Below, piece by piece: positions 6,001 through 27,000 of a stretch of DNA of 64,000 bases. The position numbers were made by a program. Where the stretch lies: the NCBI GenBank assembly GCA_963706575.1, contig CAVPNL010000006.1, positions 576,001-640,000 of the forward strand. Reading direction: 5' to 3'. The stretch's first letter is position 1. Each line of letters begins with the position of its first letter. The stretch comes from an uncultured delta proteobacterium. Lineage in GTDB: Bacteria > Desulfobacterota > Desulfobacteria > Desulfobacterales > JAHEIW01.

Positions 6001-9000
6001 GCGCCCTGGGGAGGGGCCGCTTATTTTAAAGGTGTTCAAGAACGGATTAAAACTTTTGTCGATAGTGGTCAGCTGGGACCCTTTTCCAATGCGTATTGGG
6101 GTCATCCTGCATACAAACTGCCGCCCGAAGCCAACCTGATGGCCACCGCACACTATGTTGAGGCCATTCGTCTTCAGGCTCGAACCGCACGACTGCATGC
6201 CATTTTCGGCGGCAAGAATCCGCACCCGCAGTCACTGGTGGTCGGTGGTGTGACCTGCGTCAGAGATCTGAGGCCGGATCGCATCGCTGAATTTTTGTAC
6301 ATCACCAAAGAAACCCAGGAATTTATTAAAAATGTCTATATTCCGGATCTGCTGGCGGTTGCTTCCTTTTACAAGGACTGGGGCGCCATCGGTGGCACCA
6401 GCAACTTTCTGGCATGGGGTGAATTCCCCGAATCCGACAACGAGCCCGACAGCCTCTTTATGCCCAGAGGCGTCATCATGCAACGCAATCTCGCTGGCGT
6501 AAAGATGGCCAATCAGGCACGGGTTTCTGAAGATGTTACCCGGGGATGGTATAAGGACGGCCCGGCCAGGCATCCTTACGAGGGTGAAACCAAACCGTTG
6601 CAGGAAAACCCCCAATACAAACCGGGGGACGGCAAATATACCTGGTTTAAGGCCCCGCGTTATGACGGCGAGCCCTGCGAGGTCGGCCCGCTGACACGCG
6701 TTCTGGTCGCCTATGCCAATGGGCACAAAGAAATTAAGCCTGTTGTTGACAATGTGCTTAAAACGCTGGGCGTAGATGCCAACGCGCTGTTCTCGACCCT
6801 TGGGCGCACGGCCGCCAGAGGAATTGAAACCCTGGTCATCGGTGAACGGGTACAGACCTGGCTCATGGAACTGGTCGAAAACATCAAAAGCGGCGATACC
6901 AAAACTTATGAACCCTATGAAATGCCCGACAGCGGGATGGGGGTTGGCTTAAACGACGTTCCCAGGGGCTCCCTGGGGCACTGGGTCCAAATTGAAAATA
7001 AGAAAATTAAAAACTACCAGTACGTCGTGCCGTCAACCTGGAACCTGTGCCCGCGGGATGCCAAAGGCAAAATGGGTCCGGTGGAAGAAGCCCTTATCGG
7101 CACACCGGTAGCGGATCCCAAAAAACCGCTTGAGGTCCTGCGAACGGTTCATTCATTTGATCCCTGTATTGCCTGTGGGGTCCACGTCATCGATCCGGAC
7201 TCCAACGAGGTTTACAAGATCAAAGCGATTTAATGAGCCGCCAGGCCATGTTGCTTGAAACGGCCTCCCGAATCTGCGGGAGGCCGTTTTTTATGGTGTT
7301 GACGGTTCGTCCTGTTCTAGTGTAATACGCATACTCAGGATAAAAATATTCAATCGGCATTTGCAGGGGCGGGCTTTACGCCCGCTCTTTCATTAGCGGC
7401 TTAAATTCTAAAAATAGGTTAAAATTGTCTGATAACAGTTCTTTTGACGATATCTATTCTACGGAAATTATGATTCTGGGGGTGGGCTGCATCCTTTTTT
7501 CGGATGAGGGCTTCGGTGTGCGTGTAATCGAAACCATTCAGGAGCGCTACAAATTTCCGGATAATGTTCTGGTGGTCGATGGCGGTGTTCTGGGTGTCAA
7601 TCTGCTGGGTGTCATTTCCAAACCGGACCACCTGATTGTGGTAGATGCCATTCGCAATAAAGGCAAGCCCGGGGATCTGTATCGTCTGTCAGGAGAAGCA
7701 ATCCCGGAGCGCATTCGGGCTAAAAATTCACTGCATCAAGTTGATTTTTTAGAAGCGCTGACCTTATGTCAGGCCCTTGATAAGGTGCCAGAAACGGTTA
7801 TTCTGGGTATAGAACCCGAAGATATAGAGACGCTGAGTACTGAATTGACACCCACCACTCAGTCGAAAGTCGATGCCGTTATCGAGATGGTGCTGGGTGA
7901 GATAAAGCGTTTGGGCGGGTCCTATCAGGAAAAAACGAGTGCATGAAAACCCGGGCAAGGCCTTTGCCAATCAATGCTAGCATTCAACAAACGTTGCTTC
8001 TGAGAGTTGCCTGCACATGCCGACTCGACCTTCAAAACCGTCATCTTTCCGTTCAGCCTTGGAATGGATTCTATCGAAACCATGGATGAGCATCGCATTT
8101 TTTGTAGTGATATCTCTCTTGTTTGCTCTACAAATTCCCAAGCTTTCTTTTCGAACCTCTATTTATGACTTGCTGATCGAAAATCTTCCCGAAACCATCC
8201 GTTATCAAAAGGCAAAAAAAGTTTTTGGATCCGATGATATTATTCAAGTCGTGGTTAAGGCGGATTCTATTTTTGACACCGCCACTTTCAAAAAAATCGG
8301 GGTTCTTTCTGAAGCTTTCGGCAAAATCCAGGGCGTCAGAAGGGTCATCAGTCTGCCCGGTATCCGGCAAAAAGTCGATCCGGGTGGAAACTGGGCCATC
8401 GATCGTTTCGCCAAAGTGATATCGCCGGTCGACCTGTTTAAAAAAAATCTGATATCAGCGGACCAAAAAATGAGTGCCATTACACTGTTTCTGGAAAGTG
8501 AAGCAGTACATGAAAGCGTTATCGAGAAGATCAATGACATCATTGACAAAGATTCCGGCACCCTTTCTCTTTACCAGATCGGCATGCCGCTGGTTTCACA
8601 GGCGCTAGCTAAATACACCATTAAAGACTTTCAAACCCTTCCCATTTTTACACTGATCCTAATTACCCTGACCCTTTTTGTTCTGTTTCGCAGGCCAAGC
8701 CACGTCCTGCTGGTGTTGATGGTTGTGGCCACAGTGCTAATATGGACATTTGGGCTCATGGCGTTGGTGCAAGTGCCTTTGTCTGTTTTAACCATGATTG
8801 TTCCGGTGTTCCTGATCGCTGTTGGAACGGCTTATTGCCTGCATGTTATGTCTGAATACATTTCCAATGCAGGACTTGCCGGAACTAAAAGGGAAGCAGT
8901 TATTGCAACCTTTGCGAATTCAGCATTGCCTTGCACGCTGGCGGTTGTGACCACCCTGTTCGGAGTCGGGTCGCTTTTTGTCAACCGCATCCGTGCGATC

Positions 9001-24000: not shown

Positions 24001-27000
24001 CGCTTGTTCCTATTTCTTCCAAAAAGCAAAACGGCGACATTGGCTCACCACCGCTCTTCCAGCGATATATCGACAAAATCGTAGAGCTCAACTTAAAGCA
24101 TCAAAAGATTACCTTACCGGTTATCGGCGTTCTGGTTGTGATTTGTCTGATCGGCATCTTCCGCATCCGGGTCGAAACAAATCCTGTCGGATATTTCAAG
24201 GAGGACACACAGGTTAAACGCAACTTTAACGACATTTATCAACATCTATCAGGGAGCTTTCCGATCAATGTTGTGATGGGAAATCCGGAAGCCAACTATT
24301 TCGAAGATCCTGCCCATCTGGCGGAGATCGTTCGCCTGCAAGCTTTCCTGGAAAAGTTGCCCGGCGTGGATAAAACGGTCTCCTTTGCCGATTATTTGAA
24401 ACTGGTCAATTATGCCCTCAATCAATTTGAGCAACAGCATTATGTTCTGCCGCAGGAGGGATTTGAAGTCAGGATGGCCATTAATAATTTTACCACCATG
24501 CTCGGCCAGGACATGCTGACGCGCTTTATGAGTCCCGATTTTTCAAAGACAAACATCCTGCTGCTGACCCACATATCCAGCTCAAAAGATTTTGTTGGGG
24601 TCCGCGACGAAATATTGGCCCACGTCAAAGCGGAATTTTCAAAGGATCTGGTCTGGGATGTCACCGGCCTGGGGATGGCGATTTCCGCCAGCAGCGAGCT
24701 TTTAACCGCAGGTCAGATCAAAAGCCTTGCGATTACGGTGGCGTTGGTCTTTGGAATCATGTTTGCCTTGTTTTTGTCGGTCAAAGTGGGGCTGATTGCG
24801 ATCGTTCCCAATATTTTTCCAATCATTATTAATTTCGGAATCATGGGCTGGTTCGGCATAGAGCTTTCCATGGTAACCAGCCTTATTGCCAGTATCGCTA
24901 TCGGACTGGCCGTGGATGATACCATTCATTACCTGGTGCGCTATAACCGGGAATTTAAGACGGACTTAGATGAAAAACGGGCGATCCGAGCCACACTGAC
25001 CCATGTTGGCAAACCGATTACTTTTACCACGATTACCATTTGTGTGGGGTTTTCCGTCCTGCTGTTTTCCAGTTTCAAGCCAACCGCCATTTTTGGTGTC
25101 ATGATGGTGATCACATCGTTGTCGGCGCTGATTGGCGATTTGATTGTGCTGCCATCCCTGATACAGCATGTCGAAGTGGTGACCCTGTGGGATTTGTTGC
25201 GCTTAAAGCTTGGCAAGGAGCCTCCCGAGGGCATACCGCTTTTTAAAGGCTTGTCGCACACTCAGGTTCATTACATCATTATGGCCGGATCACTTATCGA
25301 AATTGAAGCCGGCAAGATTCTGTTTCATAAAGGGGAGCCCAGCGATTCGATGTATGCCATCGTGTCCGGGACTCTTGATGTTCTGGATCCTGACAGTGAT
25401 GACGCATCCGATCGAGAGCTCGGTGGCCATAAACTCATCAATCAAATAAAAACCGGTGATGTTTTAGGTGAGATGGGCTTTCTGCGATCGGTGCCGCGGT
25501 CGGCAACCGTCATCGCAACCCAACCGGTTGAACTTTTAAAAATAAATTGGAAAATGATCAAACGCCTGCAGTGGCTGTATCCACCGACGGCCCAAAGATT
25601 TTTATTTAATCTGATGACCCTTATCTGTGACCGACTCGAAAACCTTACCGAACGCTTTTCTGAAATTAAAATTTTTGATGATTCCACCGGTTTGTATAAC
25701 AGAGAAAATTTCCTGAAAATTTTAGACTCCGAAATGAAGCGGTCACGGCGCTACCATACGGATTTGGCGCTCGGTTTCATGAAGTTTGAATTTGATGGCG
25801 CCAATCCGGATCTTAGCGATTTGGCAAAAGAGCGGATTCTTCGCGAGTTGGGTCAATCGTTTTCAAAGGCGATCCGCGACTGCGATACCCTGAGTCGATT
25901 CGACAATCAAACCTTTGCCCTGCTGATGCCGCATTCATCGACCGCTGATGCACAACTTCTTTGTAATCGGCTAAAAGGTCTTTTTGAAGAAAAATGCGAT
26001 GAGGCCCGGGGGATGCCGGTGAAACTAACCTTTGGGTTGGCCGATTTTGTAAGGGAGAAGGATGAAGGCGGGTCCGACTTGCTTGCCAGGGCCACGTCAC
26101 TTTTAAAAAATGCAGAAGAAGTATGACCCCCGGGTCTGATAAAGGGCTGGCGTTCCTTGGCGGCTCTATCTACAGGAATTTCAAAACCACCAGTGTGATA
26201 TCATCTTCCTGGTGGGCTTCTCCCCGAAAAGCCGTAACCGCATCGATGATTGCCAGGCGGATGCCTTCAGCGCCTAAATCGGCGTAGCGGCGAATAACTT
26301 CTTTTAGCCGGCCCCGCCCGAACATTTCCCCGTTTTTATTGTGGGCTTCCAGCACGCCGTCTGTGGTCAAAACCAGGATCTGTCCGGGCCTGACCGTTTT
26401 GGTACAATCCTGGTACTGCCAGCTTTCTTCAACTCCCAGCGGGAGGCCTTGACCCTCGAGTTTCTCAAAATGGTCCTCATCAGGGGAATACAGCAGTGCC
26501 GGATCATGGCCTGCTCGGACCCAGGTGATCCGGCCGGTCTGCGCTTCCACGACCATGAAGAAAAGGGTCATGAATTGATTGGTTTCGATGGTATCGGCTG
26601 AGACCAGCCGATTGACGTCGGTGATTATATCGGCCACCGAGCCTGTCTGGGTCACCCGGCCCCTGAGGTAAGCTCTAACGCCGGCCATGAGCAAAGCCGA
26701 TGAGATGCCGTGACCGCTGACGTCGCCCACCACAATTGCGTAAGTATCGGGCCCCAGGCGAGGTAATTCAATATAATCAAAGTAGTCCCCGCCGGTTTCA
26801 TCGCAGTACAGGCTGCTGCCGGCCATGTCGAAGCGTTCTTCCCTGGGTGGACGCTGCGGCAAAAGGCTTTGTTGCACCTCCTGGGCGACGTTCAAAGCGG
26901 CGATGATCTGCTCCAGGTGTTTGCTGTATTTGGCTACCTTTTTCATAGCCGCCTGAAGCTCGACAACGGTTTTTTCAAGTTGCTGACTTTTTTCGAGCAG

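Follow-up and report, generated by a model that had tools for sequence, protein, structure and literature searches.

RND-type transporter bodies fused to a histidine kinase core or to a cNMP-GGDEF tail in a hydrogenase gene cluster of Desulfobacterales

The window analysed here, a stretch of 64,000 nucleotides from an uncultured, sulfate-reducing delta proteobacterium, encodes two sister copies of one MmpL/HpnN-like RND body, P0001 and P0002. Both are presumed to be active in proton-coupled transport, and in many Desulfobacterales both are part of the hydrogenase gene cluster. In the reading that we favour with modest confidence, P0001 is a transceptor that provides hydrogenase regulation with a second input, while P0002 is a transporter set by second messengers. 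Both reading frames exist as described in the initial annotation (990 aa for P0001; 1056 aa for P0002 from its ATG). They also bracket hydrogenase and hyp genes, P0001 following HycI and P0002 following ApbE, in the order NiFe(Se) small subunit, large subunit, HycI, P0001, second small subunit, second large subunit, PAS kinase, REC, HypF, HypD, HypE, ApbE and P0002:

4544..5545, + strand: small subunit of the periplasmic hydrogenase, with a leader of about 80 aa ahead of the domain (Pfam; NCBIfam hydA, 402 bits)
5584..7233, + strand: large subunit of the periplasmic hydrogenase, read through the TGA at 5773-5775
7425..7946, + strand: HycI-type maturation protease (Pfam)
8017..10989, + strand: P0001, RND-histidine kinase fusion, 990 aa (ORF; Pfam)
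11195..12133, + strand: second small subunit, a sensor-type candidate that lacks a signal peptide (Pfam domain from aa 13)
12146..13696, + strand: second large subunit, group-2-like, ending 6 residues past the C-terminal His
13983..16073, + strand: histidine kinase with three PAS domains (PAS-PAS-PAS), the paralogue closest to the kinase core of P0001 (Pfam)
16096..16461, + strand: response regulator of 121 aa with REC as its only domain, probably the shared partner (NCBIfam REC matches, aa 1-119)
17001..22818, + strand: hypF, hypD, hypE and apbE, an operon-like run ending in P0002 (Pfam)
22938..26126, + strand: P0002, RND-cNMP-degenerate GGDEF fusion, 1062 aa (TTG) or 1056 aa (ATG at 22956)

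In P0001, Pfam detects MMPL in two stretches (115 bits), Sterol-sensing at aa 232-356 (32 bits) and HATPase_c at aa 873-988 (85.6 bits). HisKA, initially listed as missed by Pfam, is present at aa 765-825, with a marginal score of 27.3 bits, just above the cut-off of 26.9. This architecture is common to 93 of the best 120 database matches. Among 57 orthologues, the kinase residues H769, N887, D924, G926, G928, G952 and G954 are invariant, and so are V745 to L753 and P758 of the juxtamembrane linker. Only about 25 residues, with no intervening HAMP or PAS domain, separate TM12 from the phospho-acceptor His, and the juxtamembrane helix is found in P0002 too. P0001 carries an intact HisKA-HATPase kinase that appears to be in working order. 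Its parts are as follows:

8017..10242, + strand: RND body with 12 predicted TM helices and periplasmic domains at aa 43-189 and 408-577 (AF2 model, DSSP)
9982..10011, + strand: TM10 motif GLAVDDTIHY (D660, D661, H664, Y665), putative proton relay (alignment, conservation)
10246..10284, + strand: juxtamembrane helix HVELVTAWDLLKL at the TM12-kinase junction (residue conservation, both paralogues)
10309..10488, + strand: DHp/HisKA domain, with the phospho-acceptor His769 at 10321-10323 (Pfam, conservation)
10513..10980, + strand: catalytic ATP-binding domain, HATPase_c (Pfam, conservation)

Of 30 kinase matches in the genome, the adjacent PAS kinase is the one closest to the kinase core of P0001, with 119 of 232 residues identical (51%). 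DHp helix 1 is nearly identical in the two proteins and is common to both kinase clades across loci. The REC protein next to the PAS kinase has no output domain. The second hydrogenase, whose large subunit has 7utd/7uus as its best PDB relative (full length, E 1e-129), has neither a signal peptide nor a cleavable C-terminal extension. It looks like an H2 sensor, a predicted role for a group-2-like [NiFe] enzyme (2b, 2c or other). The hallmarks of the HupUV/HoxBC sensors are a cytoplasmic [NiFe] hydrogenase that lacks both signal peptide and C-terminal extension and lies by a PAS kinase and uptake-hydrogenase genes. The present locus shares this arrangement with HupUV/HoxBC and HupT/HoxJ, but its regulator is REC-only, whereas HupR/HoxA is of the NtrC type, and it holds a second, RND-fused kinase paralogue.

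Linkage to hydrogenases had been noted in this genome only. That limit no longer applies, since hydrogenase genes flank the RND-kinase gene in 13 of 16 loci from 15 other genomes; in the remaining 3 loci no hydrogenase gene was found nearby. A REC orthologue adjoins the RND-kinase in 14 of the 16, the PAS kinase is present in 12 and the signal-less pair of small and large subunits in 10. At locus L044 the REC partner is retained although neither a PAS kinase nor a hydrogenase is near. The RND-cNMP gene is preceded by hypFDE-apbE in 16 of 20 loci, with ApbE directly upstream. A sensor-type large subunit occurs in 24 of 151 genomes, 10 of which do not have the RND-kinase; conversely, 14 of the 17 RND-kinase genomes (one probable) hold it and 3 do not. 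The two genomes of the same genus have neither.

The RND body of P0001 was modelled as an AF2 monomer (pLDDT 78), in which the geometry of the linker 749-769 carries no confidence (pLDDT <50). Its top Foldseek matches are MmpL4, MmpL5 and MmpL3 (TM-score 0.76-0.78 on target), and HpnN, NPC1, Patched and Dispatched are further ones. P0001 shares with the lipid-transporting MmpL3/4/5 and HpnN the fold, two periplasmic domains and a conserved TM Asp motif, but sequence identity is 13-16%, the acidic motif lies in TM10 of the second half rather than in the first half, and the tails of P0001 and P0002 are signalling domains. A cytoplasmic C-terminal extension past TM12 is itself common in the MmpL/HpnN group. 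The TM10 motif aligns with GLGVDFAIQY of HpnN and GVGVDD of PTCH1; D661, H664 and Y665 are invariant in the 57 orthologues and the motif is maintained family-wide. TM4 (GTAYCLH) has no acidic residue, so the putative proton relay would be one-sided. Both RND proteins fall below the curated HAE3 score (216 and 238 bits against 352). The sterol-sensing signature, first singled out as a special feature, proved generic to the HAE3/MMPL family, as Pfam matches it in all 15 relatives scanned, tail-less ones included. In 3 of these 15, a LolA_like periplasmic carrier is fused to the RND protein.

P0002 also matches MMPL twice (138 bits) and Sterol-sensing (47.8 bits). Its tail, in TTG numbering, matches cNMP_binding at aa 788-876 and GGDEF at aa 913-1060 (52.1 bits), with the following features:

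25299..25565, + strand: cyclic-nucleotide-binding domain (Pfam, 57.6 bits; aligned with PKA-R, CRP and Epac chains)
25467-25511, + strand: phosphate-binding cassette GEMGFLRSVPRSATV in the cyclic-nucleotide-binding domain
25674..26117, + strand: GGDEF-fold domain (aligned to RDTD...GGEEF of PDB 5llw and 3ign)
25875-25886, + strand: RxxD I-site RDCD in the GGDEF-fold domain
25902-25916, + strand: degenerate active-site motif DNQTF in the GGDEF-fold domain

The proposal that the RND body serves as input of a diguanylate cyclase does not hold, as the active site reads DNQTF and GG[DE]EF is found in none of 34 relatives, although the RxxD I-site is retained in 33. With the active site lost in all 34, no cyclase output is expected. 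PelD and PopA are degenerate GGDEF c-di-GMP receptors that have likewise lost GG[DE]EF and kept the I-site. The GGDEF domain of P0002 thus looks like a nucleotide receptor similar to these, except that it stands behind a cNMP-binding domain on an RND transporter. Since the cNMP and GGDEF-like domains would be ligand-binding inputs, it is more probably the RND body that is regulated in P0002.

Only the body is shared by the two proteins, as had been reported: BLASTP aligned aa 10-769 with 433 of 769 residues identical (56%) and gave no significant similarity between the tails. Orthologues in other Desulfobacterales were likewise recovered, close relatives (at least 39% identity) being present in 34 of 151 genomes, that of the window included. 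In a midpoint-rooted tree, the 94 kinase-type bodies form a single clade with modest support (0.76); its sister group comprises 27 cNMP(-GGDEF) bodies, and cNMP lineages surround it. The kinase fusion therefore seems to have arisen once, from within cNMP-tailed RND proteins. The P0002 type would be the older form, and P0001 would have exchanged its tail for a kinase core that is a paralogue of the one in the neighbouring PAS kinase. Only 7 differences are fixed between kinase-type (n = 94) and cNMP-type (n = 26) bodies. The TM10 VDDTIH motif and the two periplasmic domains show comparable conservation in the kinase and cNMP clades, which does not point to a sensor body that has ceased to pump.

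A full-text literature search found no publication on RND-kinase fusions, in line with the novelty first claimed. The closest known systems join a transporter to a signalling module in one chain in the same way. Ks-Amt5 (Amt-histidine kinase) and Sd-Amt1 (Amt-HAMP-diguanylate cyclase) are N-terminal transporter folds that act as receptors for a C-terminal module (PMC5764959, PMC11152129, PMC8534201). These are trimeric, ammonium-sensing proteins of the Amt/Rh fold, whereas P0001 and P0002 have an MmpL/HpnN-type RND fold and no HAMP linker, and the GGDEF of P0002 is by its motif probably inactive. For the SLC5-STAC-PAS-histidine kinase transceptors CbrA and CrbS, the sources propose that a protonation-dependent transport cycle drives signalling (PMC13022988, PMC5715377). 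There, an SLC5 fold is followed by STAC and PAS between membrane and DHp, where P0001 has its short linker only.

Signalling might run in reverse. Both proteins would then be exporters whose cytoplasmic tail, kinase core included, is the input that gates the pump; the REC protein or a heterodimer with the PAS kinase would set the P0001 DHp-CA state, and H2 status would switch the transporter. The older tails (cNMP, I-site GGDEF), as ligand-binding inputs, imply flow from the cytoplasm to the RND body, a direction that the kinase form could take too. The nearly indistinguishable bodies of the two clades and their common juxtamembrane helix agree with this, as does the close match of DHp helix 1 between RND-kinase and PAS kinase, which makes mixed dimers possible. 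We nevertheless consider it unlikely, because a mere gating module would need none of the ATP-binding and His-phosphorylation residues, all of which are invariant, and because the REC partner is kept at L044. Moreover, in the systems that have been characterised the kinase core is the output.

Two further explanations assign the bodies other tasks. They may carry some hydrophobic or amphiphilic compound that the periplasmic hydrogenase, or flavinylation by ApbE, requires, their tails only tuning supply and the kinase having no role in hydrogenase transcription. The position of P0002-type genes at the end of hypFDE-apbE, the fused LolA_like carriers and the lipid and siderophore exporters among MmpL-type relatives (structure entry titles) are in its favour. 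However, the genes beside the two paralogues showed no carrier or adaptor, the large subunit N-terminus MAQRITIDP has no Cys and therefore no lipobox-like motif, an [ST]GA[ST] flavinylation motif was not seen by eye in P0001 or P0002, and the conserved REC partner and PAS kinase paralogy are left unexplained; we regard this as improbable. Least credible, and in our view very improbable, is a dedicated, non-transporting SSD-like lipid sensor with a kinase (P0001) and a diguanylate cyclase (P0002) as outputs. The Sterol-sensing and Patched matches in Pfam, the fold matches to NPC1, Patched and Dispatched and the precedent of Ks-Amt5 as a transporter domain turned receptor (PMC5764959; PMC8534201) speak for it. 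Against it stand the lost GGDEF active site, the generic SSD match, the unrelaxed TM10 acidic pair and periplasmic domains in the kinase clade, and best fold matches that are working transporters.

Direct fusion to a kinase with invariant residues, together with the REC gene in 14 of 16 loci, makes a transceptor-type input the most economical reading. The transceptor idea of the initial annotation thus survives for the kinase, where the fusion, the invariance in 57 orthologues and the REC partner speak for it, and is given up as regards cyclase output, SSD signature and non-pumping sensor. The P0001 body would pass through a conformational cycle governed by substrate binding, by the protonation of the TM10 Asp pair, or by both. 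TM12 and the invariant juxtamembrane helix would relay its state directly to the DHp helix and so determine how kinase and phosphatase activity on the REC-only regulator are balanced; the H2-sensor kinase would also serve this regulator. P0002, made together with hypFDE-apbE, would be a transporter controlled by second messengers and not a diguanylate cyclase; its tail joins a cyclic-nucleotide-binding domain to a GGDEF domain that is catalytically dead but has kept the c-di-GMP I-site. Control of the uptake hydrogenase would then draw on two inputs, H2 and a signal from the membrane or the periplasm.

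The genes of the two fusion proteins are set among hydrogenase genes, at the positions given in the initial annotation. Upstream of P0001, the RND-histidine kinase fusion, lie the genes of both subunits, small and large, of a periplasmic hydrogenase and of a HycI protease. Between P0001 and P0002, the RND-cNMP-degenerate GGDEF fusion, are those of a second pair of hydrogenase subunits (small and large), a three-PAS kinase, a REC-only regulator, HypF, HypD, HypE and ApbE. The main features are as follows.

5584-7233 (+), periplasmic hydrogenase large subunit, with an in-frame TGA at 5773-5775
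8017-10989 (+), P0001, 990 aa; Pfam matches: two MMPL stretches, Sterol-sensing, HisKA 765-825, HATPase_c 873-988
11195-16461 (+), small subunit without signal peptide, large subunit without C-terminal extension, three-PAS kinase (13983-16073) and REC-only regulator (16096-16461, 121 aa)
21796-22818 (+), ApbE (flavin transferase family), between hypE and the RND-cNMP gene
22938-26126 (+), P0002, 1062 aa from TTG or 1056 aa from ATG at 22956; Pfam matches: two MMPL stretches, cNMP_binding 788-876, GGDEF 913-1060
26170-30734, 3' of P0002, SpoIIE/PP2C phosphatase (-), PAS-LuxR regulator (+) and GAF-SpoIIE phosphatase (-)

P0001 and P0002 share 433 of 769 identical residues (56%) over aa 10-769, no similarity was found between their tails, and they are the only close copies of the RND body in their own genome. 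The two MMPL stretches of each protein, together with the model and fold matches given below, support a 12-TM RND plan with two homologous halves, in each of which a large periplasmic domain follows the first helix. P0001 combines an entire transporter module with an entire kinase core in one polypeptide, and this architecture is conserved. The AlphaFold2 model of P0001, computed with 57 orthologues as input (mean pLDDT 78.2, pTM 0.67), displays two periplasmic domains of alpha/beta type in addition to 12 long helices. In a Foldseek search of this model against the PDB, MmpL4, MmpL5 and MmpL3 ranked first (TM-score 0.76-0.78 on target), followed at lower ranks by HpnN, NCR1/NPC1/NPC1L1, Dispatched and Patched. 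The second half of the body also aligns by sequence with the first half of HpnN and with TM4 of PTCH1, the TM10 motif GLAVDDTIHY being placed over GLGVDFAIQY (HpnN) and GVGVDD (PTCH1). Residues D661, H664 and Y665 of TM10 are invariant among the orthologues of P0001, and a VDDTIH-type motif is retained family-wide, tail-less relatives included. TM4 reads GTAYCLH and has no acidic residue; the putative proton relay would therefore be one-sided, with a charged TM10 only.

The nearest NCBIfam model for both proteins is HAE3 (TIGR00921), and their scores of 216.5 (P0001) and 237.8 bits (P0002) are below the 351.9 cut-off, which indicates a divergent subfamily. Both also match the Sterol-sensing model PF12349 (32 and 47.8 bits, respectively, cut-off 22.3), the signature named in the initial annotation; to be distinctive, it would have to set sterol-sensing-domain proteins (SCAP, HMGCR, NPC1, Patched) apart from ordinary RND pumps. 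Since Sterol-sensing and Patched matches were present in 15 out of 15 relatives scanned, tail-less ones too, this match reflects the common origin of RND TM2-6 and is no special signature. A fused LolA_like periplasmic domain is carried by three of these 15 relatives. In P0206, P0233 and P0260, which are more distant HAE3-type relatives, the signalling tail is replaced by a LolA_like domain of about 180 aa at the C-terminus. Such fusions would fit a lipid- or amphiphile-handling family. Between kinase-type (n = 94) and cNMP-type (n = 26) bodies, only 7 positions are fixed differently and the conservation of the periplasmic domains is comparable; the two types of bodies have hardly diverged.

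The initial annotation regarded the RND body of P0002 as the input of a diguanylate cyclase. This is not borne out by the active-site motif, which reads DNQTF instead of GG[DE]EF: the P0002 segments RDCD-TLSRF-DNQTF align with RDTD-KFGRW-GGEEF and RQSD-SAGRY-GGEEF of PDB 5llw and 3ign, respectively. Forty-one proteins match this tail, of which 7 stop before the motif; GG[DE]EF was found in none of the 34 usable relatives. The RxxD I-site, RDCD in P0002 and located five residues ahead of the lost motif, is retained in 33 of the 34. The GGDEF domain of P0002 thus looks inactive and not to be a cyclase. Loss of the motif with retention of RxxD is the pattern of c-di-GMP receptor domains, and the domain is a putative receptor of this kind; PelD and PopA are known examples of degenerate-GGDEF c-di-GMP receptors. 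One source names the family of P0002 diguanylate cyclase, yet its GGDEF domain looks inactive, and the annotation should be corrected. The cNMP domain scores 57.6 bits with PF00027 (cut-off 27.5). Judged by the criterion Gly-Glu ... Arg-Ser/Thr-Ala, its phosphate-binding cassette is retained (GEMGFLRSVPRSATV) and aligns with PKA-R-like cassettes.

In P0001, the HisKA domain, previously described as not detected by Pfam, was found at 765-825 with a marginal pass (27.3 bits, cut-off 26.9), and HATPase_c scored 85.6 bits. The ATP-lid motifs of histidine kinases are named the N, G1, F and G2 boxes. Among 57 orthologues, H769, N887, D924, G926, G928, G952 and G954 are invariant, and the kinase tail looks functional from its residues. 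The nine residues V745-L753 of the juxtamembrane helix, as well as P758, are invariant in the same set, and this helix is common to P0001 and P0002. The phospho-acceptor His lies no more than about 25 residues past TM12, and the stretch leading from TM12 to DHp contains neither a HAMP nor a PAS domain.

The kinase core of P0001 is identical at 119 of 232 residues (51%) to that of the PAS kinase, which is the top of 30 kinase matches to this core in the genome, followed by matches at 43, 42 and 40%. Across loci, RND-kinase tails fall in one clade and PAS-kinase cores in another, which makes the duplication an old one; identity between the two kinases of the same locus is 38-53%. Recent gene conversion between them is ruled out by the separate clades. 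DHp helix 1 (HELNQPLNAIKMGSE/DFLKMM) is nearly alike in both clades, which suggests a partner common to both kinases, and the REC-only protein would be the obvious candidate.

The small subunit of the second hydrogenase begins MSLKLLWIQCGGCGGD and has no signal peptide. Its large subunit stops 6 residues past the C-terminal His and therefore has no cleavable extension. The best PDB relative of the large subunit is the full-length chain 7utd/7uus (E 1e-129), periplasmic enzymes reaching 1e-72 or weaker; 7utd is the M. smegmatis Huc, a group 2a enzyme. This hydrogenase looks cytoplasmic and regulatory, and judged by the nearest PDB chain it is putatively of group-2 type. In H2-sensing regulatory hydrogenases, the small subunit lacks a Tat signal, the large subunit lacks a C-terminal extension and a PAS kinase is encoded next to them; the genes of this locus show all three marks. 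Unlike in HupR/HoxA systems, the regulator here is REC-only. The region 11195-16461 looks like an H2-sensing module of a sulfate reducer.

In the periplasmic large subunit, the in-frame TGA stands in the N-terminal Ni-binding motif (RSCGVUTYTH), where it takes the place of the second Cys, and the C-terminal motif is all-Cys (DPCIACGVH). An 8-bp hairpin (5791-5809) starts 18 nt past the TGA, the 60-nt stretch folding at -13.7 kcal/mol. Among the fetched loci, 10 large subunits have a TGA at that position and 4 orthologues a Cys. Since Sec lies in the C-terminal motif of classical [NiFeSe] enzymes, the Sec position of this subunit may be a different one. A selenium link of the RND-kinase was rejected, as RND-kinase loci are found next to large subunits of either kind, with TGA or all-Cys. 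A lipidated [NiFeSe] large subunit is known from D. vulgaris; a role of the RND protein in handling such a subunit was dropped, because the large subunit here begins MAQRITIDP, without Cys.

The initial annotation had seen the hydrogenase linkage in this genome only. To the contrary, among 16 RND-kinase loci of 15 other genomes, annotated by Pfam and by tblastn with the proteins of the window, 13 have hydrogenase genes beside the RND-kinase. A REC orthologue (50-77% identity) adjoins it in 14 of the 16, a PAS kinase in 12 and the signal-less small plus large subunit pair in 10. One of the two loci without REC orthologue stops at a contig edge. Hydrogenase genes are absent from loci L037, L044 and L048, of which L044 keeps the REC orthologue. 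The gene order that recurs among these loci is small subunit, large subunit, HycI, RND-kinase, (REC), second small subunit, second large subunit, PAS kinase, (REC), hyp genes. For the cNMP-GGDEF form, ApbE is directly upstream in 16 of 20 loci, HypE precedes ApbE in 14, and the entire run large subunit-HycI-HypF-HypD-HypE-ApbE-RND is found in 9; 3 loci have none of these hydrogenase, hyp or ApbE markers and 1 further locus begins inside the gene. At locus L046, the kinase form occupies the post-ApbE position usual for the cNMP-GGDEF form. In L041 (3421-6740), inserted genes of a HaeII-type restriction endonuclease and of a DNA methylase separate the RND-kinase from the hydrogenase genes, and a SpoIIE homologue likewise follows the RND-cNMP gene in L070.

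Of 151 genomes of the order, 24 have an orthologue of the sensor-type large subunit. It occurs in 14 of the 17 RND-kinase genomes (one of them, G087, probable; G136, G032 and G008 lack it) and in 10 genomes without RND-kinase; these counts are over genomes kin to each other and carry no statistical claim. Scans of 4000-23500 gave 23 promoter-like sites (shuffles, 23.3) and 32 terminator-like sites (shuffles, 25.2 +/- 5.6) and were uninformative on operon structure. Among public sequencing runs, the best match contained a fraction of 0.23 of the words, and the only RNA run 0.05.

When the body (aa 1-760) was used as query, 1386 of 8000 scored candidates matched at E <= 1e-3. By phmmer classification, the best 120 of these 1386 comprise 93 kinase tails, 23 cNMP-GGDEF tails (7 of which end before the motif), 1 cNMP only and 3 without tail (2 partial). 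Among the matches listed, mostly from Desulfobacterales MAGs, the source labels are 'MMPL family transporter', 'HAE3 family protein' and 'diguanylate cyclase (GGDEF)-like protein'. When 1.84 billion representatives at 50% identity were searched with the body, 22172 matches were obtained at E <= 1e-3, including 6171 at E <= 1e-30. The best 150 of these 22172 divide into 65 with cNMP only, 50 without tail, 17 cNMP-GGDEF, 3 kinase and 15 other; this RND subfamily is hence most often decorated with a cNMP tail. In a midpoint-rooted FastTree of 178 full-length bodies, all 94 kinase forms fall in one clade (support 0.76), which has 27 cNMP(-GGDEF) forms as its sister group and lies within further cNMP lineages. 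The kinase fusion thus appears to have a single origin, from a cNMP-tailed ancestor. Close relatives (at least 39% identity) are present in 34 of the 151 genomes, that of the window counted. Two genomes of the same genus (G028 and G107, each 97% complete) gave no RND-body match at E <= 1e-50 and no sensor-type large subunit match at E <= 1e-100; the whole module may be patchy inside the genus. In G001 (C1:956318-958580), a TAA divides a close RND relative (49-67% identity) into two frames, and this may be a broken copy.

P0002, encoded by the last gene of the hydrogenase maturation run, is best read as a putative RND transporter controlled by second messengers. P0001 is best read as the same machine, signalling its own state via the kinase; at the hydrogenase locus it would provide a second input, next to H2 sensing, into a circuit centred on the REC protein. 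A reading by way of the proton-motive force is open to P0001 through its retained Asp pair, and the equally conserved periplasmic domains also point to a ligand or partner. In a bolder, joint reading, the RND-kinase would be the first prokaryotic module of the Patched/NPC1/MmpL fold wired directly to a phosphorelay. It would read the proton-motive force (TM10 Asp pair) or an envelope amphiphile, and its output would meet that of the kinase of the cytoplasmic H2-sensing hydrogenase at one REC protein, its sister RND being a lipid-type transporter gated by cAMP/cGMP and c-di-GMP. We put this joint reading forward tentatively and consider it rather doubtful as a whole.

A full-text literature search found no paper on RND/MMPL bodies fused to kinase, cNMP or GGDEF domains, and no description of a circuit made of sensor hydrogenase, PAS kinase, RND-kinase and REC protein. 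A term search of a 2021 review (PMC8534201) gave no occurrence of 'RND' or 'MMPL' and a single passage about transporter-fused kinases, which cites Ks-Amt5. Transceptors are termed rare in the CbrA preprint (PMC13022988), and the studied transporter-fused sensor kinases, in the papers found, have Amt or SLC5 folds. In a figure legend of the Desulfobacterium autotrophicum genome paper, the hys genes are followed by a 'hypothetical protein', a response regulator and a histidine kinase, without comment in the passages on them.

The main new point is the conserved hydrogenase context of the RND fusions. RND/MmpL would be the third transporter superfamily for transceptors, after Amt and SLC5; if real, this version means that the proton-coupled machinery shared with Patched/NPC1 is able to feed a bacterial phosphorelay. 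Were the joint reading true, sulfate reducers would set their periplasmic H2-uptake capacity by H2 supply together with membrane energy or envelope state. The conserved locus also hints at the way in which H2 uptake is regulated in Desulfobacterales, major marine carbon and sulfur cyclers; the circuit may consist of the sensor-type hydrogenase and its PAS kinase, the membrane kinase paralogous to the latter, and one REC protein common to both kinases.
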